Of a stretch of 64,000 nucleotides of DNA, positions 1 through 60,354 are shown in pieces. Under the pieces are notes generated by a model. It was not told the DNA's origin. It worked only from the letters and a program-made list of their open reading frames with translations, and did no database searches. How positions within the stretch are numbered: position 1 is the first letter of the stretch; every line of letters begins with the position of its first letter. The position numbers and the translations under genes were made by a program. Source of the stretch: Protoeuglena noctilucae (lineage: Eukaryota); contig OY253685.1 in the NCBI GenBank assembly GCA_958009085.1, positions 372,001-436,000 of the forward strand. Reading direction: 5' to 3'.

Positions 1-416
1 GACTGCCGCCGGCACTGGTCACGCGTGCGGGTGGCAGCGGCCCTGGTGGGCGGCGCTGGCGGGGTGTGGACGACCGCCCGCATCTCCCCGGGCCTTGTCA
101 TAGGTCCTCAAGGCGTGGGTGACCGCGTCCTCATGGCGGCACTGCTCTCCTGGCGCACCACAGGGCACCAGCGTGTCTGATGCGCCCGGGAAGTTTGAGG
201 CTCAAGAAATGGCGATTCTCTCACCCCCCCCCCCCCTCCCCCAAGGCGACGCCCGTCTTTGTCTCCCCCCCCCCCAAGACTCAAGGCGTAATGGTTCAGC
301 CCGAACACGTCTGACACCGGCAGGGTCAGAGCGTGGGTCAACCGCGGCACGAGGGTGCGCACACCCTTCGTGAACACTGAGCACGGCTTCAGGGTCATCA
401 TAACCAGCCAAGAGCG

Positions 417-717
417 CCGGGCACAGGGGGGCGAAACCCCCCACTGGCCCCTTGGGAACCACACTCCCAGAGTGCGTGGGGGCTTTGCAAAGCGTCCCGG
501 GGGCGGCAGCGTCGTAAGGCCACCTGAACGCGTGCGGTGAAGGCAGCGGCAGCCCCAAGGGACTGGGGGGACCGGATCTCGGGGACCTGGGTCCCCCGCT
601 CTGTCCCACAAGGGGGCGCCAAAGCCGTACCAGCACTCCGAACATGACGTGAAACCCTCGGCCACCGCCCCCGACTCTGCTAGGCCCCCGCCCACCGGCG
701 CCCGCCCGAGGTTTCCT
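417..717. repeat. ~300-bp dispersed repeat, copy 1 (copy 2 at ~1209-1508)
   Basis: Long shared blocks, e.g. GCCGGGCACAGGGGGGCGAA, AGGCCACCTGAACGCGTGCG, CCCAAGGGACTGGGGGGACCGGATCTCGGGGACCTGGGTCCCC and CACTCCGAACATGACGTGAAACCCTCGG. Contains several short hairpins. Confidence 0.9.
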
Positions 718-931
718 TGCGGGCACCCCGTGACGAGCACCGACGGGCAGCCGGCTGTCCCGCGGGGCCGAACCCGGGCTTTAGAACCCTGGAGGGCCGG
801 CGACCTTGAACTCCTGCACGTCCAGGCGATACCGCAATGTGAAGTACTCACCACGTCCCGCGCATGCGCGAGCAGGCTACCCACACCATCACAGGAGTGC
901 CATCTAGCAGACCCGGTGCTCCCACGCCCCG

Positions 932-1178
932 AAAAAAAAAAAAAAAAGGCTCGCGGCGGGATCGGAGCTCGACACGTCAGCACCTGGTGCCAGACGCGGG
1001 TGCCTCTCACTTCTCTGGACACCAACCGTGACCCGTGAGGGACCACGACCATTGCTCCCAAAAAAAAAAAAAAAAAAGGCCCGCGGCGGGATCGGAGCTC
1101 GACACGTCAGCACCTGGTGCCAGACGCGGGTGCCTCTCACTTCTCTGGACACCAACCGTGACCCGTGAGGGACCACGA
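932..1178. repeat. Two tandem ~100-bp near-identical units, each preceded by a poly(A) tract
   Basis: A-runs at ~932-947 and ~1060-1077, each followed by GGC(T/C)CGCGGCGGGATCGGAGCTCGACACG...CCGTGAGGGACCACGA. Confidence 0.9.
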
Positions 1179-1208
1179 TCTCGAGCTCGTCATTTCCCGC
1201 CGCGGGTG

Positions 1209-1508
1209 CCGGGCACAGGGGGGCGAACCCCCCCACTGGCCCCTAGGGATCCACACTCAGAGAGTGCGAGGGAGCTTTGCAAAGCGGCCCGGGGGCGGAA
1301 GCGTCATCAGGCCACCTGAACGCGTGCGCTAGGGGAGTGGCGCGCCCAAGGGACTGGGGGGACCGGATCTCGGGGACCTGGGTCCCCCGTTCTGTCCCAC
1401 GAGGGGGGCACCGCAGCCTTTGCAACACTCCGAACATGACGTGAAACCCTCGGCTACTGCTCCCGACTCTACTAGGCTCCCGCCCGCCGGCGCCCGCCCG
1501 AGGTTTCC
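1209..1508. repeat. ~300-bp dispersed repeat, copy 2
   Basis: Aligns by eye with 417-717, with scattered substitutions, many of them C/T. Confidence 0.9.
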
Positions 1509-1674
1509 ACGACCATTGCTCCCACGCCCCGTCTTTGTCTTTGATGGTCGTGAAGCTCTGGTACGAAAGCAGCGAGCGCCGGGCATGCCAGGACGGAGAG
1601 TTGCTGTCAGAGTACCTGATGCCAATCCTTTTGCTAAATTGTTGCAGCATTTCGACTTCCGTTGTCGAAGACGT

Positions 1675-1748
1675 TCCGGCTTAGCTCAGTTGGTTAGAGC
1701 GCACGGCTGTTAACCGTGAGGTCGCAAGTTCGACCCTTGCAGTCGGAG
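1675..1748 (+). tRNA. tRNA-Asn (GTT)
   Basis: Full cloverleaf: acceptor TCCGGCT/AGTCGGA, D-arm GCTC-AGTTGGTTA-GAGC, anticodon arm CACGG-CTGTTAA-CCGTG, T-arm GCAAG-TTCGACC-CTTGC, discriminator G. A TTTT Pol III terminator follows at ~1755. Confidence 0.95.
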
Positions 1749-1882
1749 CAAATCTTTTGGTGTGCCCAAGGATTACCCTACCGGGTATTGACCTACCCGC
1801 CTTCGGAGAGAAAGTCACCTACACTGCGCATGTGTAGGTACCTGTGTAGGTCAGCGCGAGCGCGAGGTCGCAAAACCCGTGC

Positions 1883-2060
1883 CGTGCCAAATGCACTGCA
1901 ACGATGGAAACCCCGGGGTGTCAGCTGCCCCGGGGGACGGCACTTCTGCCGCAAGGCGTGGCTCTGAGAGTCATAGCACCCCTCGACTGTTGAATCGCTC
2001 ATCATCATCGCAAAACCCCTGTCATAGCACCCCTCGACTGTTGAATCGCTCATCATCATC
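1883..2060 (+). repeat. Two 5'-truncated copies of the retrotransposon 3' end
   Basis: 1883-2009 matches 11279-11405 (127 bp, one mismatch seen). 2021-2060 repeats the last 40 bp. Both end in CATCATCATC. Confidence 0.8.
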
Positions 2061-2126
2061 AAAATTGGCGAGGGGGTGCGGTTGGGTGTTTTGCGTGCAT
2101 TCGCGACGGCTGATGCGGTCGCATAT

Positions 2127-2683
2127 CCCCTGGCAGGCGCCAGGCGGCAGCACGACGCGCTCGAGTTCTGCTGGTCGGGACAAGCCGCGCCCCCGAGTCT
2201 AGGGGGGCTTTCGGGGCGCTGCGCGCTGTGTGCGTGCAGAGGGACGGCAGGCTTTCGTGTCGGGGACGCAGAGCGACCGGCGGGACGCGGGGACCGCGCC
2301 GGTGGGACCAGGGTGGGGTCCGTTGTTAGCATGGGGCGAAAGTGCTCTGCGCCGTGGCATGGGGGCTTGTCTCTGCTTCGTTGCTTCGTTGTTGTATTTG
2401 TACCCAGGGGCCCGCTCGCGTGGCATCCTGCGGTTGCTCGTCCCGGCAGGGGCGGCGGTTCGGCGAAGGGGCTAGGGGCGCTGGAGCCCGGGGCGGCGGC
2501 CCCATAGCCTTAGGGTGGGGGGACCTAGCGGGGGCGGGCCAAGTGCCATATGCACTGCGATCATGGAACCCCCGGGGTGCGGCAGCCCCGGGGGAAGGCG
2601 CCCCTGTCGCGCGGGCCTAGCTCGTGCGGCGAGGATCCTGATGGACCTCAGCACCCTCAGCCATTGAACTGCACATCATCATC
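2127..2683 (+). mobile_element. Putative non-autonomous mini-element (diverged 5' end plus 3' end of the LINE, no ORF)
   Basis: 2127-2230 resembles 2689-2790 (CCCCTGGCAGGCGCCAGG...CGGGAC(A/G)AGCCGCGCCCC). 2468-2683 resembles 11203-11405 (GGGCTAGGGG...GCCTTAGGGTGGGG...CCTAGCGGGGGCGGGCCA...CATCATCATC). Confidence 0.6.
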
Positions 2684-2806
2684 GCAAAACCCCTGGCAGG
2701 CGCCAGGTGAAGGCACAGCCGCTCGGTCTCGTTGGCTCGGGACGAGCCGCGCCCCGGAGCCGAGGGGGGCTTGCGAGGCGCCGCGCGCGTGGCAGCGTGC
2801 GGTAAA

Positions 2807-5800
2807 ATGACGATCTGTAGCATGGATGGGCCGGGCGGCCGGCGGAAGGGGGTTGCGGCGACGGGGGCGGCCCGATCAGATGGTATTGTTAGCTCGAGCG
2901 TTCGGGGCCCGCGCGGTGGCGGGGCGGGGCCGGCGTCGGGTCTTTTGCATGCAGGGGGTTCAGAAGGTATCGCAGGAGGGTCTACGGGGGGCGGAGGAGG
3001 CGGAGCGGGCGCGGGTGCGCGGCGCGGGGGCGCGCTGGGGCAGCATGGCGGCGCGAGGAGAAGGGGGGGCGGGAGCGGTCCGCGAGGCCGGGGGAGCGGG
3101 AAGAGTCGGTCTGGAGGCGTTCAAAGCTCGGGAGCGCAAGGGTCGGAGGTCGGAGAGGCGTCGGGGGCGCGTATCGGCGCGCTCCCACCCATCCCGCTGC
3201 CGCCATTGGGGAATCTGCCCCCGCCGCCGCCGCCGCCGCCGCGGATGGCGCCCTCCGCGGTGCCGGCGCGCGGGCCACGGCGACGGGGAAGGCGGAGCGC
3301 GGCGCGGGACCTCGCGCCGGACGACCTGCGGGTCGTCAGCGTCAACGTGCGGGGGCTGTCGAGCGGGGCCATGGCGGGCAAGCGGGCGACGGTGCGGCGG
3401 CTGGTGCGGAGGCTGCGGGCGGACGTGGTGGTTCTACAGGAGGTCAAGATGCGGGCGGGGCAGGAGGCGGTGGCGTCGGGATTCTTCCCCCAATACTTCT
3501 GCCACTGGTCGCTGGACGAGAACGGCGGCCCGGGGGGCGTGGGGGTGCTGGTACATCGGGAGTCGGTGGCGGGCACGCCGAAGCGGCGCGGGGCGGACGT
3601 GGAAGGGCTGGCGGGGCGGGCGTGCGCAGTCGACCTCGCATGGGCCGACCGGCGCTTCACGGTGGTGGGGGTCTACGCGCCGGCGTCTGGGGGGGCGGCA
3701 GCGCACAGGGACTTCACTGCGCGGCTGCGGCATCTGATGCCGCCTCGCCAGGCGCACAGGGAGACGATCGTCGTTGGGGACTTCAACTGCACGTCGGGTC
3801 ACCCGCTCGAGCGGGCGTCCCGGCGCCACCACGACGACCTGGCCAAGGTCATCCACTGGACGGAGAACGTGACGGGACCGCAGGGGCTGGCGGACGTGCA
3901 CGTGCAGCTGGGGCTACGCCGGGACACCTACACGTGGTTCGGGGCGCGAGCGGAGGGGGCAGCAACGCCGGCGGCGCGCATCGACCGCTGCCTGGCGCGC
4001 CCGGCCCTGCTAGCCCGGCACCCGGCGACGCTGGCGGCGCGCTTCGTGCCCGGGCTGGACCACAAGGCGCTCGTCCTGACGCTGCGGCGGCGGGCAGACA
4101 GGGCCGCGGGGCGCAACCCGCTGCGGCAGGTCCGGCCGTTCTGGGCGCCGGGGAGCCATGAGGCCGAGCGATTCCAGCGGGGCGTGTGGAGGGACTTACC
4201 GGCGGACGGGCCGGGGTGCACGTCGGTGCGAGTGGCCTAGGTCATCCGGCACCGCGCGGAGGCGATCAACCTGGTGGTGCGGCGGCGGCGGGACGGGGAG
4301 CGGAGGCGTCTGGAGAAGCAACTGGGACGGGCGGAGAGGAGGGCGCAGCGGACGAACGCGACGGAGGACTGGGACCGGATGCTAGACCTGCAGCGCCAGC
4401 TGACGGTGCTGGAGCAGCAGGAGGTCCAGTGGCAGAGCGAGCGGGCGAAGCACTTTCTGCGGGTCTTCGGGGCCGTGCCGAGTCGGCGGATCACGGCCCA
4501 TTTCAAGTGGCGGCGGCGGGCCGAGGGCGTCACGGACGACCTCGCGCGGGACCTGCAGACCAACATGGCCCAGCTCTACGCCCCTGCCGCGCCCCCGGCC
4601 TCCGCGGACGGCCAACATGAGCGGGCGCGCGCCAACTTCCTGCGCAACCCGCGGTCGCCGCTGTCGGAGGAGGCGAGGGCCGCTCTCGAGGCAGACGTGA
4701 CACGGGCGGAGGCGGCTGAGGCGATACAGGGTCTACGGGGCGACAGCTGCGGTGGCGCGGACGGCATCTCCCCGGCGCTGCTCAGGGCGTGCCAGGGCAC
4801 CGGGACCGAGGCGGGCGTCGAGCGGGTGGTCGCCTACTTCGTAAACAAGCTCCTCCGCGGCGAGGGGCACGACGGCCGCCTCGCGGACGCCGCCATCACG
4901 CTCATCCACAAGGGCGGCTCGCGGACGGACTGGCGGCGGTACCGCCCCATCTCCCTACTGTCCGTCCTCTACAAGGCTTCGGCCAAGGTGCTGACGGCGC
5001 GGCTGCTGCGGGTGCTGCCGCAGCTCGTGCACGAGGACCAGTTGGGTTTCGTCCCCGGGCGTGACATTGGGACGGCCATCTACTCGCTGCATCTGCTCGA
5101 CGAGCTCATGCGCATCCGGCGGCAGTCTGCGTGGGCGGTGCTGGTGGACTTCGAACAGGCGTACGACACGGCCTTCCGGGGGTGGGCTGCGGACGCGATG
5201 GCGTGGGGAGGGCTCCCGCCGCGTTTTGTCAAGGCGGCGGTGGCGCTGCAGAGCGACAGCCGGGCGAGCCTGGTCCTCAATGGGGCGGCGGGGGAGCCGT
5301 TCCCGCTCAACCGGGGCGTCAAGCAGGGATGCCCCCTGAGCTCATCTTCGTGCTGGCGGTGGAGCCCCTCGCAGAGAGGCTGCGGGCGTGGGGCCAGGAG
5401 CCGGTGCAGCTGCCGGGCGGCCCGCGGTGCGACCGCGTGCTCGGCATCCGGACGACGGGCGGCAGGGCCGAGACGCTTCTGGCCTTCGCCGACGACTTCA
5501 ACGTGCTGCTCCAACGGCTCGTGGCGCGCGACAGGAACCAACTCGACCCGTGGCGGGAGCTGGCCGAGGTGCTGCGGGACTTCCACCGTGTGTCCGGGCT
5601 GAAGGCGAGCCAGACCAAGACGAAGCTCTACCGACTGGGACGCATCAACAAGCGGCAGGAGGCCAAGGCCGCCGCGCAGGGCTGCCCGTGGGGGGTGGAG
5701 CTGGGGGGCGTGCGGCTGCTGGGGGCGCAGACGAGAGAGCAGGCGGCGCTGGTGTGGCCCGGGCGGCTGGGGGAGGCCCTGCGCCGCGCGGACGCGGCGT

Positions 5801-8376
5801 CATCGCTGGGGCTGCCGATCCGGGGTCGGGCGCGCGTCGCCAACGCCTACATCACCTCGCTCGCGGGGTACCACCTCGAGATGTCCCCCGCCGCCGACCA
5901 CTCGTGCGTCGCTGACCTGCGGAGGGTCCAGGAGCGCTATGTCCTCAACGCACGATCGGCGGGGCAGGTGTGGTTCCGTGTGGGCCGCATCATGCTGACC
6001 GCCCCGCCGGAGGGTGGGGGGCTGGGCGCCCTCCCGCTGGACGCGCACACGGCGGCGCGGCGGCTCCGGCACCTGGCGCGCGCCCTCATCACGAAGCGCG
6101 TGGGCGCTCACGGCCAGTTGGACGGTCTCGCTGGCATCCTCACGGCGTGCCTGGAGGGGCTCGGGGCAGGCCGGCTGGGCCTGCTGCCCTTCTCACTGCC
6201 CGAGACGGACGGTTGCCACGTGGCGCAGTTGATCGAGTCCCGCCGCCTGCGGGGCAAGCTGCCGGCGCTCGAGAGCTTCTGCGACGCCATCAAGAGCCTC
6301 GGGACCCTGCGCGCGACCCTCGGGCCCGTGCACGCGCCGCCACCTCTGGCACCCACGACGGACGAGGTCGCCCGGCAGCGCTGGACCGGCCTGGCGGCGG
6401 AGGGCCGGCTGACGCTCAACTTCGACGGGGGCTCGCGGGGCAACGGCTCCGACACGTCCACGGCTGGCGCGGGGGCGGTGCTGGCGGCCGGGGAAGGCGA
6501 GGGGGTGGAGACGCTGGAGCTCGCGGGCCCCGCCGTGCGCGGGGCCTCCAACAACCAGGCCGAGTTCGCCGCGCTTTTGGGAGGGCTGCGCGCGGCAGTC
6601 GAGCTCGGCGCCACCAAGCTCCGCGTCCGGGGGGACTCCCTCCTCGTCATCCGCGCCATGGACCCGCGGGACTGCTCGGTGCTGCGGCACCCGGCGCTGG
6701 TGCCGCTGTGGACCGAGGCGCAGAGGCTCGCGGCGGGCCTCGACATCACTTGGGAGCACGTGCCACGGGAGCAGAACGCCCTGGCGGACCGCCTGTCCAA
6801 CGTGGCCATGGACGGGCATGGCTGGCGGGGGGCGCGCATGGGCGGCGGGGGCCTGGCGGGCACGGACGGCTCGCGTTTCGCCTCTTCTACGGACTTCTTC
6901 ACCCCCGTCACTGGGACTACAAAGGGGGATCTACTCTGCGCGTCGCTTCTCACCCCGGGGGTCCTCTGTGCCGCCGGCGGGGGGGCTCCGGGCGCGGGGG
7001 TGGCAGGCCTGGGGGCGCCGGCGATGGAGGGGGCAGCTGGCCCCCTCCACAACGACATGGGACAGGACCAAGACGATTCGGCCTCATCGCTCCACAGCTT
7101 CGCGACGGGCGCCCATGGGAGGGCTGGTGGGGCGTGGGTGCACGACGGCGCGTCGGGCGACGACAATACGGATGATGGGATCGACGAGGGGGGTGCTGGG
7201 CGGCCGGCGGGGGGCGGCCGGCCCCTCCTCCTGCACCCGGTGGGGAGGGCGATGGCGTAGCGGGGGTTCGGAACTGTGGGGCATTATCTCTGCATGCGGG
7301 ACCCGGCGCGGCGATGGGACACGTGGGTCTCCTGGGCGTTCGCGCTGGGCTATGATCGGCTGCCGGGGATGGATCGGAGGGGCCTCGGCTGGGTGGTTGG
7401 GGCTTTTATGCGGGACCTGGGCCTCCTTGGGCCGGGCATACTCGTTGCCCGGCCAGACGTGGAGGGGCAATGGGACCCGTGGGACGGGCTGGCGCTCACG
7501 GAAGGCTTCATGGAGCGCCTGCGACTCGCCTCCCCGGGCGGCGGGGAGGCCAACGACTTCTACCGGCCCATGACGGCCACCGCGCCGGGCTGGGCACTGG
7601 ACCCCGGCGTCGCCTCCAAGGCGGCGCTGGACCTGGCCTCCTACACGGTGCGGGAGGCGGCGAGGACGACGTGTGACAGGGCGGCGATCCGGCAGCGGCT
7701 GGAGCGCAAGGCGGAGGGCTGGGCGGCGGCGCTGGGGGAGGGACACGGCTTAACGGGAGAGGGATTGAGGCGCACGCTGGTGGCGCTCAACGGGCTGCCG
7801 CTGTCGGACGCCCTGCACGAGCGGCTGTGGCTGACGCTGGCGGACGGGTGGGCTACGCAGGACAGGATGTACTGGGCGGAGCGGGACGAGTGCCCGCTGC
7901 TGACGGAGGAGGGGGAGGCGTGCATGGGAAAGGACAGCGCGGCCCACGCGTTCTGGGAGTGCTCGCGCGCGCGGGAGGTGTGGCGCGTGGCGAGGGGCAT
8001 CGTGGCGTGGGCGGGGGGGGCGCAGGGGGCGCCCCTCCGCCTGTCGGCCCTCTTCCTGTTGCGCGTGCCGGAGGGCGCGCGGTTGGGGCCGCTCACGTGG
8101 GCGGTCGTGGCGGGGGCGACCGTGCAGGTCATCTGGCGCAGGCGGCAGCAGCTGACGAAGGACGCGGGGGCGGACGCGTACCCGGCACAGCTGTTCGCGC
8201 AGATGGCGCGCATCATGGCCGAGGAGCTCGTCGCTCTGGCGGCGTACCGGGGCGGGCGGGCCCTCGCGCGCTGCACGCACCCTGACGACGCCCTCTTACA
8301 CCCAAGGGACCCGGCGAGGTCCACCTTCACCTACACTGCGCCCACATGGGCAGCCGTCGAGCCGCTACTCCCCTGA
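2807..8376 (+). pseudogene. Disrupted LINE polyprotein: Gly/Arg-rich N-terminus, APE endonuclease, reverse transcriptase, archaeal-type RNase H, zf-RVT
   Basis: APE motifs VSVNVRGL, VVLQEVK, GVYAP, VVGDFN, IDRCL, LDHKAL. RT motifs YRPISLL, QLGFVPGR, LVDFEQAYD, GVKQGCPLS, AFADD. RNH motifs FDGGSRGN, NNQAEF, RGDS, EQNALADRLSN. zf-RVT CPLL...C...DSAAHAFWEC. In-frame TAG at 4238-4240 and 7258-7260, frameshift at ~5340, no introns seen. Confidence 0.9.
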
Positions 8377-8420
8377 GGGGGGCTCTTCATTCGCAGCTCG
8401 CCATCACCCCACGACATTCG

Positions 8421-8485
8421 GGCCGGGGCGCCGGCGCCGGACGGGTGGCCTTCGGGCTGCTCGTTCCGGCGTCGGCGCCCCGGCC
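8421..8485 (+). other. ~30-bp RNA hairpin capped by a C(UUCG)G tetraloop in the LINE 3' UTR
   Basis: GGCCGGGGCGCCGGCGCCGGA-CGGGTGGCC-TTCG-GGCTGCTCG-TTCCGGCGTCGGCGCCCCGGCC. The non-Watson-Crick positions are mostly G-U on the + strand. Confidence 0.85.
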
Positions 8486-10512
8486 AACTGGGGCGTCCAC
8501 GGCCACACTGAGCATCTACGGAAGAGCCCGTCTGCCGGCTAAAACAAGCTCCCCTGCACCCAGGATGATGATATGGGCTGGAGCATCGCACGGCGGCGCC
8601 ACCGGCGATCCCCTGGGCTGCCTGGCCGGAGCCGGAGCCTGAGAGGGGCCGCGGGCGGGGGGTCCACGCGATGCGCGCGCAGCCGCAGGGGCGTGGGGCG
8701 CGCTGTGGCGGCAAGGGCGGGCGCCTCACGGGGAGGGTGCCGGCGCTCGGGACACCAAGGGCTTCTGCGCACCCACGCTCCATCTCTCGCATGCCTCGCA
8801 GGTTCTCGGACGCACACTCGACAGCTTTACCCACACGCCTTCTCCTCACCTGCCCCGCAGCCGGCCATGCCACCCCACCCCAATGCGCATTACTCCCACA
8901 TCCACCCGACCGCATTGCTCCCACCAGGGCCCTAAGCCAGCCCACTGCCTTCCTATGACGCACACTTTTCACCCCCCACATCACACTGCACACGCACCCT
9001 GCCCCAGCAGCACTCACCCGCATGCCACGCCTCCCCGTCCATGCCCGCAGCTAACAGATAGATGCCTCTTCCAACCAGACCACACACACCGTCTTACTCT
9101 CTGCACGCACCCTCGTCACTCATCTCACGATCTCGCCGCTCAGCACCACTCTTGCCCACTCACCGCGCATCACCACTGACATACACACGTTCACCTCTCA
9201 ACCCCCTCTCCTCTTCCACATGGACCCCCACATAAACCACCTTCCTGCTCAGCACGCATCATCTCCCACCCCTCCTCCTGGCAGCCCCACGCCACACCCT
9301 TCTCACGGACCACGCCCCCGCACACACCTCACCTCACACGCCCAACCAGACTCGCCCTTTTCGCAAGCCCTCCTGCCCCACGCACTCCCCCCCTAGCTGC
9401 ACAGGTAAGGCTCAGCACCCTCTCCTCACAGCTAATGCCCACGTGAGCACTCACACCCCTCAGCGCATCACTCCCCACGCACCAAGCACCACACACCGAT
9501 CCAGCACAGCATCTGCACCTCCTGACCTCCCCCAATCACGCACAGACCTCCTCGCATCCTCCCACGACCACCCTCTTGGCCAGCCGCAGGTCAGGACCCA
9601 CACCAACACTCATCCTCCGCCACGCACACCGTCACCTCTCCCTGACCGCAGACCTGGACGGACGCGCAGACGCACCCTTGCCTCACCCCTAGCCCTTTGC
9701 AGCCATGCCTCGCAGGCCCTTGGTGTCCCACAGCCGCCAGCGCTCACCCGTGGGGCGTCTGCTCCGTCGCCGTCGCGGCGCGCCCCGCACACCCACGGTA
9801 CTGCGCGTGCCGCGTGGCCTCCCCGCCCGTGGTCCTTCAGGGGCTCTGGCGCTGGTCGGGTGGGTCCGCGTGGGGGTCGCCAGCGCGTCGCATGTGCTCC
9901 AGCCAACGTGAGAGACCAGCCCCGCTGGGGGGGGCTGGCAAAGGGTGCGACGGGGGACAAACGTCGGGGCAGAGCTGGCACCAACGGGTTGATGGGCTCA
10001 GACAGTGGCGAGAGACGTGGCGCCCGTGGGGTGGAACGCCGGGGATGTCGTGGGAACACCCGGCAGTGGCGCAGAACGGACCAGGCGCCACAGGATCAGA
10101 GAGCGGCGTGGCTGCGACGAGGCGGGGAGAGTGGGGGCGCAAGTGGGCCGGAGGGCCTGTCTTTGGGAGTCTGCTGAGGAGGCCCTGCAGGAGAGCAACG
10201 GATGGCGAGGGGTGCTGGCGCCCGGCATGATGGCGCTGGCGGGGGCGACCCCTCGCACGACACACAGCAGGGCAGCGGGCTTTTGGGGGCGGGCGCGATG
10301 GCAGCGCGGCAAGAGCGAGCGGCGGCGGCGAGAGTAACACAAGGGGCATCGAATGGTGTGGGTGGGCATGGGCTGGGCGACACAGGGGTGTCGGGTGTTT
10401 GGGGGGGCGACGGGGGCGCGAGGCAGGCCGAGGTCCTCTGGATGCGCAGGGGCGCGTGAGCGGGGGGCAGGCCTCGGTTATCAGGGCGCGCGGGTGCGCG
10501 GAGCGGGGGGTG

Positions 10513-10680
10513 GGCCAAGGTCGTCAGCGTTAAAGGGCCAGGGTCGCCACAGCGTCGGTTGAAGGTCGTCAGCGCATTTGGCCAAGGTCGTCAGCGTGAA
10601 AGGCCAAGGTCGTCAGCGTGATGGGCCAAGGTCGTCAGCGTGATGGGCCAAGGTCGTCAGCGTGACAGGCCAAGGTCATC
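10513..10680 (+). repeat. Minisatellite of ~8 units of ~21-22 bp, GGCCAAGGTCGTCAGCGTGA(T)
   Basis: Directly visible tandem units, degenerate at the edges. Confidence 0.9.
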
Positions 10681-11547
10681 TGGGCGTGTGGGGGCGAGGA
10701 GTTGAGGGACGGGCCAAGGCCGACGGGCGCGGGAGAGGACGGGCCAAGGGCCAAGATCGACGTGCGGGAGCGAGGAGCGGGGCCGCGTCGTGGGTCTCTG
10801 GGCACACGGCCGAGTGGGTCGTGCCGGCGCACGCACCCGGAGCGGGGCGGTCTGGGGCGGTCCACATGAGAGGCAGCCGGCCCTCAGGGGCGCAGCGTGG
10901 GCGAGCGGGGCGCCCAGGGGCAACGCTGCGCCCCCCAAGGAACGCCGTCTGCGTTCGGACCGTCCCCACCGCCCTCGCGTTCGGGCCAGCGTCGCCGGGT
11001 GGGCGAGCCAGCCGGGCCGCCTGAGGAGGATGGGAGGAGGGTAGGGAGCGGGGGATGTCATGATTGGCCGCCCATAAGCTACACAGATCGTCATTAGCCT
11101 CGGCCTCACCTTTTGTAATAGACGCCCGGGGGTCTCCAAGGAGGGCCCCCGCGGCTGCATCGTCCCACTCTGGGACGGCGATTCTGCCTTAGGGCGCAGC
11201 GAGGGGGCTAGGGGTGCAAGAACCCGGGGTGGGCGACCCCTTTGCCTTAGGGTGGGGCAACCTAGCGGGGGCGGGCCACGTGCCAAATGCACTGCAACGA
11301 TGGAAACCCCGGGGTGTCAGCTGCCCCGGGGGACGGCACTTCTGCCGCAAGGCGTGGCTCTGAGAGTCATAGCACCCCTCGACTATTGAATCGCTCATCA
11401 TCATCACGACCTTCACCTTCACCTTCACGCCGAAGCGCGATTCACGTTCCGGTTGTAGCTTGGTGAGACGGGATACGGTCGGGGCTGCCTCGCCTGGGCC
11501 GAGCGTTCCTGGGACCTGCACCAGCACCCTGGGGTTCTGCTGCAGTC

Positions 11548-13823
11548 ATGTGGGGGCCCCAGTTACTTTTGGTGGAGGACCTGGAGCTTGGGGCGCCGCT
11601 GGGTGGGAGCGAGGGGGTCGTGACGGCTCAATGGGTCTCGAGGGGGCTGGACGTGGCGGTGAAGTTGCTAGAGCTGCTGGATGGCGCTAGCACGGGCACG
11701 AATCCGGCTCTGGAGTTGCGCCTGGCTTTCCATGGCTCATGGTCGCGCCGGTCGATGCCAATGCTCCGTCCCAGCGGGCGCCCACTGCCGGGTCCTGGTC
11801 GTCGCCGTCAGCGGTCGCTGCGTGCTGGTGGGGACGCCGCGTTTCGCTCGCGGGTCCCTCGCGCGGCGCCTGGGGAGCGGGACGGCCCTTCCTGCGAAGG
11901 AGGCCGTGGACGTGGCCGTGCAGCTGCTGGAGGGGCTGTGCGCCCTGCATGAGCGGGGCATCGTGCACGCCGCGCTCAAGCCCAGCAACGTGCTGGTGGA
12001 CGAGAAGGGACGACTGCGACTGTCTGACTACGGGCTCGCAGATGCTGCTGGCGTCCAGATGGGCCCCTCGGCAGGGAAGCTGTCACCTTCCTAAGGTGGG
12101 AAAGGGCAGCTACAGGGACGTTTCTTTCGTCAACACAGCGTGCTACGGAACCTTCCATGTCCGCAGTGGGAGGGTGGACAGGGTGCGCTGGTCGATGCCG
12201 CGGCCTACGTGGCCCCGAAATGCAGGGGCGAAGGGGCGGCCACGAGCTTTGCCTCGGACGCATACGCGGTGGCCGCCGTGCTGTGCCACGTGGCGTCGGG
12301 CACGGCGCTGCCCACGGATGGGCACGCCTGCGCAGGTGCCGAAGACGTTGCCGGAGCCGCTTCGGTCGGCCCTGCGAGGGGCGCTGTGCGCGGAGGCGGA
12401 GCGCAGGACAGCTGTGGCGGACATGCTGGAGGCAGCGAGAGAAGCCAGGTGCGCGTCGGAGTAAATCGACGTTGCAACGGTTGCGCGCGTGGGTGCAAGC
12501 CACGCAAGTCCGACCGCCCTCGGCGTCATCGCAGGGCGGCGCTGTGGACGTGCTGCATCTGCATGGAGGAGGAGGAGGCGCTGACGCCATGCTTGGCGGA
12601 CACGCACCGCATCTGCAGCGAGTGCCTGGCCAGCTTGGTCGGGACCCTAACGGCGAGCCACTCGGTCTTCACGGTGGATGGTCACGTGGGGTGCAAGGAG
12701 GCGACGGGGCGGGAGTGCCGGGGCGTGTTCCGACGCGCGGATGTGGTGGAGGGACTTGTGCAGTCGCGGGCCTCGGCAGCGTGCCTGGCCTTTCTGGAGC
12801 AGGGGTCACACGGAGGTGCTGTCGCAAGTATCAGCAGACGCACGCATGACCGAGCTTCAGCGCCGGAGTGCGGGAGCTCGAGAGTTGACTGAGGAAGCAA
12901 AAGCGCTCGGCGATATGGAAGAATCCGTGACCACCCATTGGCGGGCGATGAAGGACCTCCTAATCGTGGTCCGGTGCCCCAGCTGTCAGCGCCCAGGGTC
13001 GATCGACGTATCGCGCTGCATGGCGCTGCACTGCGCGCGGGGGGACGGCGGCTGCGGCTGCCATTTCTGCGCGTGGTGCATGGGGGCCTGCTCCGACTCG
13101 GGCGCGGCCCACGACCACGTGAGCGAGTGCCGGCTGAACCCCAACCGGCCGGCTTTCTTTGCATCAGAGGAAGACCTGCTTAAAAGCCGGAAGTGGGAGC
13201 AGCGTCTGCGTGTGGTGGCTTTCCTCCGGGACAGCATTGCCCCTAGACACCGAAAGGCCGCGTGGGCGCTGGGGTTTGCAAAGCTGCCGGCCATCTGTGA
13301 CTTGGGGCTACGCTGGGAGGACGTGTGTTGCGGGTGTTGCGGCGTCATGAGCCGCGGGAAGGGCAGCAAGGTGACCGTGAGGCGTGTGTCCATCACGGGC
13401 TCCAAGGCGAACGCGGGATCGCGTGCTGGGACAGTGGGGTGGGTGAGGTGTCGGACGTGCACATTACGCGGTGCAAGCTGTCGGGCATCTCCGTCATTGG
13501 GGCTGGGAGCAGCGTTAAGGTGCAGGGGGGCACAATTGAGGGCCCCATGGAGCACCACGGCGTGTGCTGCTTCAGGGGTGGGTTTGCAGACCTGAAGGAC
13601 GTTGATCGCAGACTGCGGCAAGGCGGGCGTCCAGAGTTTTGGCAATGGTAGCAAGGTGGTCGTGCGAGGGGTAAGCTTGGCGCGGATGGGTAGCAAGGGT
13701 GGTTTGTGCTGCGAGAACGGTGGTGAAGCGGAGGTGGAGGGCACGCTTGTCAGCGATCGCGGTGGCAGCAGCGGACGGGGTGGCAGCGAGCAGCGTCGCA
13801 AAGCCTCGTGCAGTTTCATGTGA
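11548..13823 (+). pseudogene. Frameshifted kinase-like + RING + IBR-like + right-handed beta-helix fusion
   Basis: Kinase motifs DVAVKLL, IVHAALKPSNVLVD, LSDYGLA, YVAP, SDAYA. RING CCIC...HRICSEC...C...C. IBR-like CPSC...CMALHC...CGCHFCAWC...H..C. Beta-helix repeats (VSDVHITRCKLSGISV, IADCGKAGVQSF). The motifs are spread over several frames. Confidence 0.7.
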
Positions 13824-15739
13824 TGGATATGCCGTGTAAAGTCGGAGAGTTGTTTTGTCATAAGCAAGCTGTTTTGTCATACATAGGCAAGCGATAGGCA
13901 AGCTTGGGCTGGGGATCTTTGACGCCGTGCGCACATTACAGACGAGACTGTGAGATGGGTGCAAGCTGGGAATGACAGGCTTCGATGCCCCTCCACCTCG
14001 GCTTGCATGCATGCGATACTGATTATGATGGGGGACGCCAGCTTGAAGGCGAGCGCCACGCTGTACACCTTGCTTGGCTCCAAGCTTTTCGTTGGCCCCT
14101 TTGTGGGCAGGGGGGCAAGCCCGCTGTGGTGCTGCTGCCCACTGCGCCGCTGCAATGGCTGGGGCGGCCCTGTCAGCTTGCTTTCTGACGGACCCTTCTC
14201 TTAACGGAACTGCTTGCCAGTTCCATGCCTGTCATGTTTTGCAAGGCACGCCAACATGCACATGGCCCACTACAGCTTCGCTGCAAGCCGGCGTACCAGG
14301 TACTCGGCAGAAGTGGGTAAGGGGCGCTGCTCATTCTCTGCGTGGCGGGATTGCTGCTGCAAAAGCACCACAGCATCCACAATGCCACTCAGCACTGGGG
14401 CCGATCAGCTACCTACCACCATGTGCTGGCTCGGCTGCCACGCACAGTCGTCAACAGGAAGTTCACGACCCTGGAGGACGCTGGGGCTGCCTAGTGGATG
14501 CCCGCCGCTCCGACCTTACGAGGGCCTGGCTCGATGGCCTTCTCCGAGGGCAGTCTGTGGAAGGATCGCCTGGAGACACAGACCTGCAAGATAGCCGCCC
14601 TTGTGGCCCTTAGTAGGACGACCCAACCCCTACCAACTCCATCTAAGCGTACCGTGCCCACGTCGCAAAGGCGCAACACTGTCGACTGGGGCCCCCGAGG
14701 GAGAGCACGACAGGCGTGCTGTGTATACCTCCTGCTGTCTCCACGAGCTGGCAGCCCACCATGCAGCTCTTTGGGGCTTTAGCATCCCTGTGCCTGTGTG
14801 GGTATTGCGTTCCTGGTACCGCACGGCCCTTTGTATACACACTAGACGCCTACTGCCCCTAACACGGGTACGAAGCCGACTCGCGTTTGGCACATCGCAA
14901 ACATGGTATGGCGTGCTTCACTGGACGCCTGTCATGCAGGAGGAGCTCGAGGCTTGACCACGGGCTTGCGCACGGGCCATTCCCCTATGGTCATTCCCTT
15001 CCTTGCTTTCGTGACGCCGCCTAGATGCACCAACGCAAATGCGACGAGTTAGTGCACATGATTGTTAGAAGCACAAGACCTTTCTGCGCATAGGGCCACC
15101 TGCACGCAACCCCAAGGGGAATATTGAAACTACGCCAGACGACGCGCAAGTTTTTTGCCCACACAGGACATTAGGGAGGGGGACCTCAGGAGGGTGGAGC
15201 AAGGCAGGAGTAGCCAAAGCGTAGGGAGCAGAGCGGTGGAGCGTGGTGCCATAGCCCCACCACAAGGCATCAGTTGAAATGCTGCCATAAGAGACGGGGA
15301 GGAGGAGACGAAGTGGCACACGATTTCAGCCATGCTGCAGGACTTTGTCGGGAGGGTGGGGGTGTTGTGGCATTCAAGGCACAGGGGCTGGGGCTTAGCC
15401 TAAAGCTCAGGGTATGCAGGGCAACCAACCGGTCAGTGGGATCGTGGAGATGGCCATGGGCCAAGGTTGACCTCAGGGTTGGCCTCAGGGTTGGCCTGAG
15501 GTCGTGCCAAAGCGGGTGGTTGTTGCCAGATGAGGTGTGTTGCGTTGTCCTCTTGCAGACACAAAAAGGGCATTTCTCTTGTCAGGTGGCGAGCGGCAGG
15601 CCTTTCGTTGCCACTACCCAGCGCAGCGGCGAGGCCGGCATCCCTGGCAGCCGGTTCAAGCTGCACTGCGACTGCTAGGGCCCGAAAATTGCGACGGCGA
15701 ACGTCCACGCTCGCGATGGCACCGGATGCGCTTGCCTCG

Positions 15740-18293: not shown

Positions 18294-19783
18294 ATGGCGA
18301 CGGCGGTTTCCGCGACCGGCGCGGTCCAGCGCCTGGCTCCCCGCGTGGGGATGAAGCCGGCGAGGAGGGTGAGCGTCGGGATCCGGCTTGGCGTCCCGTC
18401 CCTCGCCTGGAATGCCTCGTTTCCTCGCGTCTGCCTAGCTAACCGATCCGCTGTCCATGCGTTGCCGCTCACTACGCCGATCTCGTGGTGGTGCTTTCAC
18501 TTTCGCCCCCGGGCCTGCGCTATCGAGGAAGCGTCGGGAAGTTCGTGGCTGGGGGCCCCCCGCGCCGTCGAGAGGCGCATCCTGGTCCTTTGCGACGTCG
18601 ATGGACCTGTTTCCGGCCGATGTGGATTCGAGGGGATCCCAGGGTCGTTGCCGAGCCCTGGGGTGCGCACGATCGAGGTCCTGGAATGTCACCTCATCCA
18701 CACCCCATCGCGTCGCTCCCGGCTTTCCCCCGGCTGGGAGATTCGCGTAGTCGAATTGCCGTGTCGTAGGGAGTCGGCGCTCGCTTTCCTGGGAGCCCAG
18801 GTTCTTCCTGCTAGCGAAAGACGACGCCGGGCATTTCCGTGCCTCGGCCGCGTTTTCCGACTCCCAGACGCGTCTCATTCCACAACCCCGCTAGATTCTG
18901 TCCTTGGCATACGCGTACTTCCGCATGCGCAGCCAAAAAGATCCCTCCGCTATGTGTTGTGTTGCCCAGGCTGTGGCGGCGTCGGCCGTCGAGCTCAAGG
19001 CCCCCCCGTACCCCCTCAACGCCCTCGAGCCCCACATGTCCGAGAACACGATGAACTTCCACTGGGGCAAGCACCACCGCGCGTACGTCGACAACCTCAA
19101 CAACCAGATCAAGGGCACTGAGTTTGAGAACAAGAGCCTGGAGGAGATCGTGCTCGGGAGCTGGAACAACGGCAAGCCGAACCCCATGTTCAACAACGCT
19201 GCTCAGGCAAGCGATGTTGCCGCGCCGGGAGACGCAGCGACCATCGTGCGGTCGCTTTCATCAGGTAGAGGACGTGATGTCCAGTCTCTTCGCCCACCGC
19301 AGGTGTGGAACCACACGTTCTTCTGGGAGTCGATGAAGCCCAACGGGGGCGGCAAGCCCACGGGGGAGGTGGCCAAGGCCATCGATGCGGCGTTCGGGTG
19401 CTTCGATGAGTTCAAGGTCAGGCCAAGGATCCCCCGTGCCCGACGGCACGCGGCCGGCACCGGAGTCACAACGACGCGCCCTGAGCTAGCCCGGTGCCCG
19501 TCTCCCGCAGACCCAGTTCAAGCAGGCCGGGGCCACGCAGTTCGGCTCCGGGTGGGCGTGGCTGGTGGTGGACCCCGCGGACAAGAAGCTCAAGATCGTC
19601 AAGACGCCGAACGCGGAGAACCCCGTGTGCATGGGCATGAAGCCCATCCTCACGATGGACGTCTGGGAGCACGCGTACTACCTCGACACGCAGAACCGCC
19701 GCCCCGACTACATGACCACCTTCGTCGACAAGCTCATCAACTGGGACGCGGTCGAGGCGCGCTACAAGGCCGCCATGAAGTGA
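18294..19783 (+). CDS. FSD: Iron superoxide dismutase, plastid-targeted (4 exons)
   Basis: Transit-like MATAVSAT..., then [57 protein letters not shown]. Confidence 0.93.
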
Positions 19784-19846
19784 GCGCGCGATGGGCGTAG
19801 ACCCTCGCAGCCGGGGCCCTCGCTGATTGAAGTCCGCCACGTCACT

Positions 19847-22800
19847 TCATTCGCGCCGGCCACCCCGGGCAGCGGGTGTCTCAAGCTTGGACATCACGGC
19901 CTCGTACTGGCCCATCGTCCGGGCGTGCTCCTCGCGGAGCCTGCGAGCCCAGCGACGATTCGCCGTCTTCACGTGACGTGCCTCTTGACCTTCCCCCACA
20001 CTGCTCGTGTCTGCCGTCACTCACCTCCGCAGCTTCTCTGCCGTGCTGGCCGTGTCCCCGAGCATGTCCTGTGCCTCGCCGTGTCCCTCCATGGCCAGGG
20101 CCTCCGCTGCCTCGCGGACTGCGCTGGCTTCCTGGTCCTCGGCCTGCACAGAGGGACAGCGCATCCATACATGGCGCCTTGTCAAGAGAGCAACCGACGC
20201 GCATGCACCCTTCGCATGCGGCTGCGGCCTCGCCTCCTGCTGCCGCGCCCGCAACTCCTCAGTAAAAGACTCAAAGAGCTCAGCCCTCCGCTTCTCCTCC
20301 GGCACACCGCTGTACTGGGGTTCGGCCCGGACGCGGCGCCGCACGGCCGCCCACGTGTCGCTCGGGGAAAGCGACGGATCACGCAGCGACCTGCGACGAC
20401 GTCACGTGGCAACGGTGCTGCTGACGGCAGTCGAAGCATGCCACTCCCATGCCAAGCCTCCCGGCCCACCCCACAGCACCTCAAGAGCTCCAGGAACGCG
20501 GCCTCTGCCTCCCTCGTCTGCTGCTGCACCTCCACGACCTTGACGCAGTCGATGTACACGGCCGTGAAGAGCTCCTCCCGCTCGCGTTCCTCCGTCACCC
20601 GCTGCGGGCCAAGAGACGCTGCCGCTGCTCCCATGGAGGTGCACGTGCCAGCATGCACGCGTGCATGGCTCATGGACGCAGTCTCACTCGGAAGCGCGGG
20701 TCGCGCTTCATCGCCGCACGTGCCGTGTCCCACCCCTGCGCCGCCGCGACCCCCTCCGGCCCTCCCAGGCACTCAAGCACCATCGCGCGGAATGCCTCCT
20801 CCGTCGCCTCCTTCTCCTTCTGGAGGGACTCGAGCACCATCGCTGCAGAAAGGGACGAGGCATCACTCGGCCTGCGTTGGGACTGCTTTGGCCTCCAAAC
20901 CCCGAGCAGCCGCTGCGCCTGGGGACCCTGACCTTTGAACTGGGCGAAGAGCGCCTCTCTCCTCGCCGCTGGCACGCGGCCGTACCGAGCGAAGCTTTCA
21001 ATCTTTGCCTCCACGACGTCCCACTCCGCCTCGGGGTCCCTGCGTGGGCCAAGGCGGACGTGGCTGGGCGAGAGGGAGCACGCGGACGCTGCACGGCAAA
21101 ACGCTCAGCAGCCGCGGCCCCCACCTCACGACCTCGTCCCGCAGCTCCTCGTTCAGGAGCCCCAGGAAGGCCCTCTCGGCCTCCACTGCCGCGGCCCGGC
21201 GCTGCAGCGAGTCCAGGCCCTCGATCAGTGAGCCCAGCAAGCTGCCGCCCGTGCGCAGGGCTGACGAAGTCAGGGTGTTGAAGCCGCCGACGAGGCCCCC
21301 GGTGATGGCGCCCGCAGCGCGCTTGGTGAACGTCGCACCCAGCTTCTCCGCCGAGGCAGCCGTCGAAGCCGCAGCCGCGCTCGCCTCTGCGCAGAGCGAC
21401 AGGAGACGACGGTGGGTGTCGGCTGCGTGCAAGACCCCCCCCGCATCATAAGGGCCGAAACGGCAGGCACCTTTGATCAGCGCCTCGGCCGCCGTCGGGC
21501 CCTCCGACTCCCTGCCCCGGCCTGGCTGCGAGGCTGTCGTGAGGGCCCCCATGGCCTCGTCCATGAGTTTCCGCATAAAGGCCAGGCTTCCTTCCATGCC
21601 TTTCAGCACCTCTTTCGCCTCCCTGCGCGTGCGGCGAGGGTGTGAGTCGGAAATGGACGCGAGCAGAAGCAGGGTGCACGACCTGAGGCCGCTGACTCAC
21701 GCAAGCTCCTCCCCGACCTCGTCCCCCGCCTGCGCGCGCTTCGTGAGCGCCTTGACGACCATGGTCTGCCGCTGCGTGGCCGACTCGACGCGCCGCATGT
21801 TCGCCGCAATGCCGTTCACGCGGTTGGCCAGGCGCGCAAACAGCGTGGCCGGGCGCGGCTCCGGGGCTGGCACGCTCGCCCCAGCGTCTGCGAGAGGAGC
21901 GTGCGGAGTTGACACGCCACTCCACTCGCACGCAATGGCTTGCGGACGCGCTCCAACCCCCTCGCCTGGGAGCTCGGGACTCACGCCCGAGGTCGGCGGC
22001 GACAGAAATGGGTGCGCCAGCGCCTCAGAGATGGAGATACGCGTCTGCTGGGGGTCCACCACGTCCATGACCGAGAACATGCCGCGGTACCCCTCGGCGC
22101 CAAAGCTCCGCGGCAGCAGCATCTTGGCAGCCAGGTCCCACCCCGCGCCGCCATCCATGTCCAAAATGTCCGTCTGACCTTGCAGCGCATGCATGTTCCT
22201 CTGCAGAGGGGGCGTATTGCTTCAGTCTGTCATGAAACATAAGCGGACGGCCATGGTGCCCACCGCACCCGATGCCGCTGCCCTACTGTGGCCCACCTTG
22301 CGCCATTTGGACAGGTTGTACTTGCACTGCCGCAGACCGTCCGAGAACGTCTTGAGTCCCCGGTCCGAGCGGATCATGGGAACGGCAAGCTGCATGAGGA
22401 TGAGGCCGGCGGCGTAGACGTCGAAGCGGTCGGGCTGCGGGGAAAGGCGTGTGGCGATGTCAGCGCCGGTATTCGCTGCGATGAGCCCTACGATGGCGAC
22501 CCTCGCGGCGTGCTCCTCACCTTGTGCTGCAGCCACATCACGGGCCCCATCATGGCCTGCTGGAGGCGGTTGTGCTTGGCGAGGTGCGGGGCGTGCACGG
22601 GCACCACGTACTGCTCCGGGGGGCAGTAGAGGGGGTCGAGGATGGCCTCGGCAGGGTTGAAGTTGGTGCCGGACCGGAGGTCGGCGCACGCGCCCAGGTC
22701 GATAAGCTTCAGCCGCCGGATGTCCTCCGCCACGATTATGTTGAGGGGCTTGACGTCCCGGTGCACCAGTCCGAGGCTGTGCAGCCTGTCACATGCCTCG

Positions 22801-24010
22801 AGGATCTGGCGCATGGCCACGGGGACCACCTGTGGGCGGGAGGAGGAGCACGCGAGGCATGCAACAACCGTCCAGGTGTCCCAACGGGCGTGTGGGTCTC
22901 CCCCCAACCCCCGGGACCGACCTGCTTTGTCGACACCCCCATGGCCGTCGCGAGGGCTTGCAGCGTGTCCTTGCGGCGGAGGAAGTAGGACAACGTGTGC
23001 CGCCCCTCGTACTTCCACACCAGCCATAGGCCCTCCACGATGCCCGGCGTGGCCGTCTCCGGCGTCGCCTCGATGTAACCCCTGCGCCGGGAGGAGGCGC
23101 ATTTGTGGGTCGCATCGTTTCCGAGGACCGGACACCGTGTGCCCCCGAGGCACGGGCCAAGACCCCACCTGAAGTCCGCACACACGCCCGGGGCACACTT
23201 GGACACGAAGACCTGCGGGGCAGCGCAAGGCCAGCGGATGGGGGGTCGGTGACGTCAGCGGTGCAAGGAAATATGACAGCAGGGTCCCGACTAGGCCCCC
23301 TCACGTTCAGCAGGTGCTCCATCTGCCCCATCTCGTCCGCCCCCGCCACGCGCTGCTTCACTCGCTTGACGACCACGTGCTCCGTCTCCCCGTCGAAGCG
23401 CTTGAGCCTCCCCTGAGGACGATCGGGCAAGGCAGCGCGGTTTCGGGCCTGCCTTTCGCCGCCACGCTTTGCAGGGTCGCATCCATTGCCCGCGCATGCT
23501 GCGGCCCGCTCCGATCCACGAGCGACACCGGTGGGCCGCGTGGTCGAAGTGCATCCCCTCAGAGTGCGCAGAGTGCGCCCCGGCGGACGCCGCGGCTGCG
23601 GGAAAGCCGTTGTTGCTGCGACCCCCACATCCCGCGCTGGGCTGTTTCCGGGGCCCTCGGCGGCGAGGGCCGTCGCGAGTGTTTGAAAAATGTCGTTAAC
23701 AGCAGCGACTGACCTCGAAGACCGACCCGAAGCTCCCCTCGCCGAGCAGGCGCTCGAGGCGGACGTCAGAAGGCTCGAAGCGGATGCCACGAGACCCAAT
23801 GACCGCCCGCGCGATGAGCGATGTCCTCCACGGACGACGTGGAGCCAGGGAGGGGCCGCGCCTCCTCGCCGGAGGGCAAGGGGGGGTGGCCCTGCGGTGC
23901 CACAGCGGCAGGGCTGCCCTGCCCGGGCAGGGCACAAGCCCCAGGCGAGAGACCGGCCCCAAACCCCCATCTCCCAGGGCCCCAGAAGCTTGCGTGCTTG
24001 CCAGGCTCAT
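19847..24010 (-). CDS. STT7/STN7-like plastid Ser/Thr kinase with C-terminal FF-like repeats (multi-exon)
   Basis: LGEGSFGSVF, VVVKRVK, WLVWKYEG, LVHRDVKPLN, IDLGACADLRSGTNFNP, LDPLYCPPEQY, PDRFDVYAAG, GWDLAAKML. FF-like motifs lie downstream. Confidence 0.85.
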
Positions 24011-39805: not shown

Positions 39806-39939
39806 CGAAGGGAGCGCGAGGGTGGAGGACAGGAACAACGCAAATACATGCCACGCAGCAGACTGGCTGGCGGGCAACAGGGGCGCGAGATAATCGCACG
39901 TGGAGAGAGCAGTCAGTTGCCGCGCCAGAGCTGCGACTT

Positions 39940-60295: not shown

Positions 60296-60354
60296 TTCAA
60301 CTTCGCACGATATCACGCACGGGGATCGGCCACAAGCGAAGGGAAGGGGGCGCC

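Follow-up and report, generated by a model that had tools for sequence, protein, structure and literature searches.

A head-to-tail stack of truncated 3' ends in front of an L1-like retrotransposon of a marine green alga: probable repeated insertion at the 5' edge of the resident copy

Shortly downstream of a tRNA-Asn gene of Protoeuglena noctilucae, several 3' ends of a retrotransposon are stacked head to tail in front of an 8.7-kb copy of the element, and the same short motif returns at each junction. The locus lies in a 64,000-nt stretch of contig OY253685.1 (positions 372,001 to 436,000, forward strand), which is called the window here and in which all positions are counted from the first letter. 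How could successive inserts have come to share one junction down to the nucleotide? We lean towards the answer that the stack is a nest of target-primed insertions by one young L1-like long interspersed nuclear element (LINE) family, which would have reused the 5' edge of the resident 8.7-kb copy.

Two short sequences mark the stack. GCAAAACCC is present three times in the 64 kb, on the + strand at 1870, 2010 and 2684, and CATCATCATC four times, ending at 2009, 2060, 2683 and 11405; three copies of the former were given by 0 of 100 shuffles, and four copies of the latter likewise by 0 of 100. The piece at 1883–2009 is identical to 11279–11405 at 126 of 127 positions, the sole difference being G at 1989 versus A at 11385. 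Counted from the last base of the tRNA, the first GCAAAACCC lies 120 nt on and the 127-bp piece 133 nt on. The full repeated unit is 14 nt long, TCGCAAAACCCgTG at 1868 and TCGCAAAACCCCTG at 2008 and 2682, and the three copies share the form TCGCAAAACCC(C/g)TG (1868, 2008 and 2682). A preliminary description of the locus had reported four segments with a common end, a motif recurring at three junctions, a 127-bp identity broken by one base and a distance of ∼135 bp from tRNA-Asn. All of these hold, with small corrections: the third tail ends at 2683 rather than 2682, the third motif starts at 2684 rather than 2683, and the repeated unit is longer than had been noted. The parts of the stack are as follows.

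1868..1881, + strand: site copy 1, TCGCAAAACCCgTG; an exact match over 11 nt, or over 14 nt with a single mismatch, 1879–1882 being perhaps filler
1883..2009, + strand: unit A, 127-bp 5'-truncated 3' end with tail CATCATCATC; 126/127 to 11279–11405
2008..2021, + strand: site copy 2, TCGCAAAACCCCTG; its first TC is common to the tail of A, its last G to the start of B
2021..2060, + strand: unit B, 40-bp 5'-truncated 3' end with tail CATCATCATC; 39/40 to 11366–11405 and 40/40 to 1970–2009
2061..2064, + strand: AAAA filler between the tail of B and the truncated start of C, delimited by alignments of C-family contigs
2065..2683, + strand: unit C, 5'-truncated, non-coding, short related element of 619 bp with tail CATCATCATC
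2682..2695, + strand: site copy 3, TCGCAAAACCCCTG; the first bases of the resident (from 2684) plus the TC common to the tail of C

Site copies 1 and 2 each precede a 5'-truncated 3' end, with 1–4 nt of filler or microhomology in between, and site copies 2 and 3 are each directly preceded by a tail. This layout, read as target-site duplication (TSD), truncated insert, tail and TSD, is met twice with the middle copy in common, which argues for two target-primed insertions into one staggered cut. Truncation at the 5' end, short filler or microhomology at 5' junctions and duplications of 11–14 bp are hallmarks of L1; here a repeat of 11–14 nt flanks both unit A and the pair B+C, and A, B and C are all 5'-truncated. 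We infer that site copy 1 is the left TSD of unit A, and that copy 2 serves both as the right TSD of A and as the left TSD of B+C. The earlier suggestion of 5'-truncated 3' ends laid down head to tail by repeated insertion is borne out by these site copies, together with the endonuclease, reverse transcriptase and RNase H domains of the resident (see below).

Junctions and relatives were assessed with Logan contigs from public runs (X1, organism A; X6, a marine metagenome from a separate study; X8, RNA; X13, organism B). The matches listed, on which the contig evidence is based, comprise 32 of the 887 pieces, 15 of the 22 joints and 22 of the 206 loose ends; contig depths were used as a proxy for copy number only for the rough rise from 5' to 3'. 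DNA of the window was found in marine metagenomes and metatranscriptomes.

Unit C is related to the large element at both ends. Positions 2121–2365 resemble the first 244 nt of the latter (66%; 80% in the core, 2119–2226), and 2463–2683 its last 207 nt (74%; 83% in the core). C-family contigs from three runs align from 2065 only, with other letters before that point, and a 1624-nt RNA contig of X8 through a C-type unit has 562 nt more upstream and runs 443 nt past the tail. Unit C is probably a non-autonomous partner whose 3' end is the one recognised by the LINE's enzyme. Units A and B both have G (1989 and 2040) where the resident has A (11385); this shared G was probably copied from another member of the family, or else the resident changed later.

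The stack may have been built in the following way. The 8.7-kb copy (2684–11405) would have inserted first, 120 bp downstream of tRNA-Asn. At least two later insertions at the identical nucleotide would then have used the same staggered cut at the 5' edge of the resident, with a bottom-strand nick just before (TC)GCAAAACCCC and a top-strand nick 11–14 nt further. A cut of this kind would duplicate the first 11–14 bases of the resident each time and so leave the site intact for the next insertion. One event would have delivered unit A, the other unit C with 40 bp of LINE 3' end (B) upstream of it; the joint B-AAAA-C could stem from a template switch of the reverse transcriptase or from a separate insertion into the tail of B. 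The common TC would let the nicked strand pair over 2 nt with the 3' end of the RNA. As the cause of the reuse we favour a preference of the family for inserting at or into its own copies, as in Zepp, rather than guidance by the tRNA. The preliminary description had offered insertion beside a tRNA gene or at the element's own end; the own end fits better, since the motif is the 5' edge of the resident, and tRNA targeting, with one tRNA and one cluster, is not supported.

A contig of X6 bears on the nature of that edge. In it the site is uninterrupted and has 176 other letters upstream; in the 30 letters before the site, a 10-nt block and the last 8 nt match (by eye) the sequence upstream of unit C's homologous site, TCGCATATCCCCTG. 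Hence GCAAAACCCC is probably not the canonical 5' end of the family, whose leader probably extends further upstream, and the extra copies of the motif would be local duplications rather than mini-elements composed of a 5' and a 3' end. The resident itself is probably slightly 5'-truncated. The last 8 nt of the left flank and the last 8 nt of the X6 contig agree at 7 of 8 positions, which we take as microhomology at the 5' junction of the resident. The left flank and the sequence upstream of unit C had no significant similarity to each other (score 12 versus a shuffle mean of 13.4).

The resident and its open reading frame (ORF) are placed as follows.

2684..11405, + strand: resident non-LTR (long terminal repeat) retrotransposon, 8722 bp, recognised by Pfam domains, likeness to L1 ORF2p and tandem repeats
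3245..8376, + strand: ORF for endonuclease, reverse transcriptase and RNase H, broken by TAG at 4238–4240, a frameshift near 5339 and TAG at 7258–7260

It consists of a leader of ∼560 nt, one long ORF, a 3' untranslated region (UTR) of ∼3 kb and an (ATC)3 tail. In the Pfam search the domain order was Exo_endo_phos (apurinic/apyrimidinic-type endonuclease, APE), RVT_1 (reverse transcriptase, RT) and RVT_3/RNase_H. Majority contigs of the public runs have A at 4238 and four extra bases past 5339, which removes two of the three defects of the ORF. Relatives at 99% identity are present in the protein database, with a cluster of 49 members; among these relatives, P0019 has an intact ORF of 1711 aa with start and end matching those of the resident ORF. 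Its PF03372 (residues 32–262) and PF00078 (563–798) domains place the APE N-terminal to the RT in one ORF. The best relatives of solved structure were human L1 ORF2p (E 4e-29 to 1e-28, residues 128–831), by a wide margin over R2 (1e-9 to 1e-7). Every family set listed for 30 Atlas look-alikes has RVT_1 and/or an endonuclease family, several also have RNase H, and one look-alike cluster was automatically named Tx1. By its domains and these relatives, the resident is an L1/Tx1-group LINE; all four tails in the window (4/4) are CATCATCATC, not the poly(A) of L1 proper. No Pfam domain or ORF that could stand for a separate ORF1 was found upstream of 3245 in the resident copy, itself possibly 5'-truncated. 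Upstream of 3245 the ORF2 frame stays open as far back as an ATG at 2807 (2807–3244 of the window), which would add ∼146 Gly/Arg-rich residues.

RNA contigs in X8 have a depth of 20–88 over the element versus 0 over the silent flank 12601–13500. The intact 1711-aa ORF at 99% identity, the 49-member cluster and these RNA contigs together indicate a LINE family that is young and active, and apparently expressed.

Several features of the element stand apart from the question of the stack. The 3' UTR (8377–11405) is unusually long, with a reversal of GC skew at 8001–10000; it contains tandem repeats of 22/44/66 bp at 10422–10719 and an inverted repeat (8631–8769 versus 9711–9850, 74%). Other genomic copies are without 8072–9334 (25 other letters instead) or without 10368–11135 (15 letters). 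A 9-bp GC hairpin ∼70–95 nt from the 3' end is conserved in two independent sequences, a number that gives no evidence of function. A search of 1–14000 for ribozymes and other RNA families at E <= 1 returned the tRNA only, plus a chance-level small-RNA match outside the element. A contig found in all four runs shares 33 nt (7814–7846) with the C-terminal coding region and nothing else with the element; the same foreign sequence adjoins this block on both sides in all four runs, the left side ending like the 3' end of an intron, and the contig may represent host or domesticated sequence with a short common block.

The outer junctions of the stack were recovered in more than one data set. A single contig of 434 nt spans 1479–1912 with 0 differences in X1 and again in X6, and the junction of the element with its right flank (11405/11406) is crossed with 0 differences by single-copy contigs of 58,888 nt (X1) and 10,588 nt (X6), both of which start within the last 30–50 nt of the element. 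Contigs end 30 nt inside the repeat borders 1508/1509, 1882/1883 and 11405/11406, as expected of 31-mer graphs; since the flank contigs end at 1912, 30 nt (k-1) into unit A, the border between unique and repeated sequence falls at 1882/1883. Depth in X1 is 121 for the contig that links the tRNA flank with unit A and 394 for the right-flank contig, and in X6 the values are 13.5 and 15.8; the low value in X1 may reflect heterogeneity of the insertion or a coverage artefact. In X13 the right flank is without cover and the left flank nearly so, the tRNA bin excepted.

Joints of a tail with a truncated copy were also seen at other loci. In X1 and X6 the tail stands directly before a copy truncated at 8216 (joint 2060->8216); in X1 it is followed by 10 letters and a copy truncated at 4294 (2684->4294), and in another X1 joint by 34 letters and 59 nt of a C-type 3' end (2683->2625). 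Wider searches yielded no further members. A scan of JGI metagenomes with the 20-nt 3' end gave five loci, all chance matches (5/5) with upstream sequence unlike the element and no blastn match to the window. Viral contigs gave 0 DNA matches, and 3 pattern matches with the protein query, of which 0 were confirmed. Contigs of prokaryote genomes gave 129 pattern matches to P0019, two of which were weak tblastn matches in bacterial metagenome-assembled genomes (32% over 87 aa and 57% over 23 aa) that do not belong to the family. A protein search for the upstream flanks of other copies, with the minus-strand ORF across the 2684 junction, gave 69 candidates, none of them significant.

A number of observations weigh against repeated insertion at the resident's edge. 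The letters next to the four tails of the window are GC, AA, GC and AC, which indicates that the endonuclease is not strictly sequence-specific; the reuse of a single nucleotide stays unexplained. No TSD of the resident itself is visible: the comparison of left and right flank scores 15, a value reached by 221 of 2000 shuffles, so that its own entry would have gone through a blunt cut or a deletion. Site copy 1 has one mismatch to copies 2 and 3 over 14 positions; its TSD would then measure either 11 nt, with filler next to it, or 14 nt, with one base altered afterwards. The joints at other loci have just 21–36 letters on the shorter side and abut truncation points without GCAAAACCCC, and for them template switching fits at least as well as reuse of a site. 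The inner junctions (2009/2010, 2020/2021, 2060/2061 and 2683/2684) are absent among the 32 of 887 contig pieces listed and have their support from the assembly alone. Finally, the evidence is present in full at one locus only.

A different origin, which we regard as possible though unlikely, is serial jumping of the reverse transcriptase, which on reaching the 5' end of an RNA would continue at the 3' end of another and so produce a head-to-tail concatemer in one or two events; GCAAAACCC would then mark where short or broken template RNAs really began. R2 proteins do jump to further 3'-UTR RNAs and give head-to-tail tandem copies of transgenes, according to the portion of PMC11371274 covered here. 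The B-AAAA-C joint resembles a jump with untemplated bases, and tails standing before copies truncated at 8216 or 4294, with 0–10 extra letters, call for no site preference. Applied to the stack, however, jumping means that the enzyme would have to abandon the 3' region on two occasions, once after 40 nt and once after 127 nt, and resume 9–14 nt from the 5' end of an RNA, whereas the TSD reading requires no such exit and re-entry. The three copies of the 14-mer demand at least two events in either case, and the X6 contig suggests that the RNA of the family reaches upstream of GCAAAACCCC, which would mean that the motif is not an RNA end.

The neighbourhood of the tRNA gene raises a further alternative, in which the gene or its RNA polymerase III (Pol III) complex steers insertions to ∼120 bp downstream, as for TRE3 of Dictyostelium, the shared junction reflecting distance from the tRNA rather than the sequence of the element. 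The relevant features are these.

1675..1749, + strand: tRNA-Asn (anticodon GTT), found with ARAGORN and as Rfam RF00005 (66.8 bits), with TTTT at 1755–1758 downstream
1750..1867, no strand: single-copy spacer from the tRNA to the stack (left flank), covered by the contigs over 1479–1912 (X1 and X6)
11406..11430, no strand: right flank, beginning ACGACC and continuing with three TTCACC-like units; the left flank is not duplicated here

We consider such steering improbable. All events have the same left flank, 119–120 nt past the tRNA-Asn(GTT) gene, the only tRNA gene of the 64-kb window, and the part of PMC5006619 consulted places TRE3 ∼100 bp downstream of tRNA genes. A second pile of retroposons, with A16–A18 tails, stops ∼135 nt upstream of the same tRNA, and 86 long ORFs from the remainder of the window are without another transposon protein domain, which also agrees with an effect of the tRNA. 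On the other side, this is a single case (n=1); the insertion windows of TRE3 in the same source span tens to hundreds of bp (14–228 for Dd_TRE3-A), not one nucleotide; and among the matches listed no foreign flank (before 2682, behind 11405 or before 2065) is tRNA-like within 30 letters. The joints of tails with truncated copies elsewhere point to nesting of element on element, and the element is unlike TREs in having one ORF, an RNase H domain and no poly(A). Direction of the pile-up by the tRNA is without evidence, and tRNA targeting is unproven.

That the stack is a local misassembly of a repeat-rich spot seems very improbable. The region is multicopy, the inner junctions are absent among the contig pieces listed and the X1 depths differ (121 for the junction contig versus 394 for the flank); against this, the junctions of the flank with A and of the element with the right flank recur with 0 differences in two runs of different studies, contigs end exactly k-1 from the borders, and the structure is coherent, with TSDs and fillers. 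Least credible is a terminal direct repeat or a very long TSD, both of which the preliminary description had raised; a terminal repeat could be LTR-like, a pseudo-LTR of Penelope type or a 5' tag as in HeT-A. The 99% identity of 1883–2009 and 11279–11405, in direct orientation and bracketing the rest, might recall such an arrangement. Against it, the truncated copies number two and differ in length (127 and 40 bp), and a short TSD goes with each of them. The two 127-bp copies are separated by the 40-bp copy and by a different element. The one upstream breaks off arbitrarily within the element, and what lies right of 11405 is no repeat of the sequence left of 1883. The protein (APE, RT and RNase H) is of neither Penelope nor LTR type, and no ribozyme family was found in 1–14000 at E <= 1. 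A Penelope-like element (PLE) with a pseudo-LTR was rejected as a candidate on the same protein, which has APE, RT and RNase H instead of a PLE RT with GIY-YIG, and on the lack of a hammerhead ribozyme family in that search.

Outside the stack the window is GC-rich and belongs to a marine green alga; the host was taken as a green alga because the named relatives of an iron superoxide dismutase (Fe-SOD) encoded in the window are chloroplast Fe-SODs from green algae and plants. Intron-split host genes are present for Fe-SOD, a protein kinase, a class II aminoacyl-tRNA synthetase, RNase H1, MMS19, cytidine deaminase and a Ctr copper transporter, in the stretches 18895–19797, 22491–23300, 25231–26319, 38657–39912, 40016–41593, 59552–60292 and 59861–60871. 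A scan of 86 long ORFs elsewhere in the window gave no further transposon protein domain. The separate retroposon pile upstream of tRNA-Asn (1–1545) is unlike the downstream stack. It holds a 340-nt unit twice (379–716 and 1171–1508, 84–91% identical) and two 130-nt tandem units at 932–1178, each after an A16–A18 run; these runs are the only homopolymers of at least 10 nt in the 64 kb. The pile ends ∼135 nt before the tRNA, its repeat border at 1508/1509 being consistent with the contig ends, and the start of the window may be the edge of a larger transposon cluster.

As it stands, the locus presents a well-behaved, young and apparently expressed L1-like family together with a short, probably non-autonomous partner. 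Insertion at the resident's edge would make it a base-resolved example of how a LINE array grows, in that each insertion duplicates the edge and thereby recreates the target, and this may bear on the start of Zepp-type clusters. A stronger version, to which we give little credence, is that the family homes to the ∼14-nt site TCGCAAAACCCCTG in its own leader, or to a constant position behind genes transcribed by Pol III, the site being regenerated at each insertion and the arrays growing by self-homing. If true, a marine green alga would harbour an L1-like LINE with specificity for a sequence or a position, possibly the seed of Zepp-like centromeric clusters; reuse directed by sequence or by tRNA would bring a green-algal example to the short list of 'safe-haven' strategies known for retrotransposons of compact genomes.

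Among known systems, human L1 ORF2p is the best solved relative and has APE followed by RT in one protein. The element here differs from human L1 in that no ORF1 was found and poly(A) is lacking, and in its RNase H domain and 3-kb 3' UTR. Site-specific LINEs of the Tx1/R1 type cut repeatedly at one position and make a constant duplication, which the stack would match. With these and with microsatellite-tailed LINEs the element shares a simple-repeat tail that is not poly(A) and that has 2 nt (TC) in common with the target; in contrast, the 3' junction of the resident and one foreign 3' flank lie at unrelated sequences, so that there is no strict sequence specificity. The R2 system, as described in the available part of PMC11371274, is similar in that a tail may be joined to the next copy by a few untemplated bases, as in B-AAAA-C and the joints at other loci; it differs in its restriction-like endonuclease and its ribosomal DNA targets, and jumping alone leaves the three 14-mer copies unexplained. 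TRE3 is an APE-type LINE found ∼100 bp downstream of tRNA genes in the gene-dense Dictyostelium genome, and the element here, also an APE-type LINE, lies 119–120 bp downstream of tRNA-Asn at one locus; in the sections of PMC5006619 at hand, however, TREs have two ORFs, a zinc finger, poly(A) and a scatter over tens of bp, as opposed to one ORF that includes RNase H, the (ATC)3 tail and reuse of a single nucleotide.

Zepp and ZeppL are L1-group LINEs of Chlorella, Coccomyxa and Chlamydomonas that insert into themselves and form head-to-tail arrays of mostly 5'-truncated 3' ends, according to the parts of PMC8226300 and PMC3446292 covered. The likeness extends to the green-algal host, the L1-like LINE and the nesting into its own copies, both in the stack (1868–2694) and at the joints of other loci. 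There are also differences from Zepp as portrayed in those parts: the element has an RNase H domain and a fixed (ATC)3 tail instead of poly(A), and its cluster is small and lies in gene-rich DNA next to a tRNA; the Zepp literature covered does not describe insertions that reuse one nucleotide and leave an identical 14-nt duplication. Overall, Zepp-type nested insertion of green algae appears to be the closest precedent, and on this comparison the stack would be an ordinary retrotransposon pile-up of a known kind.

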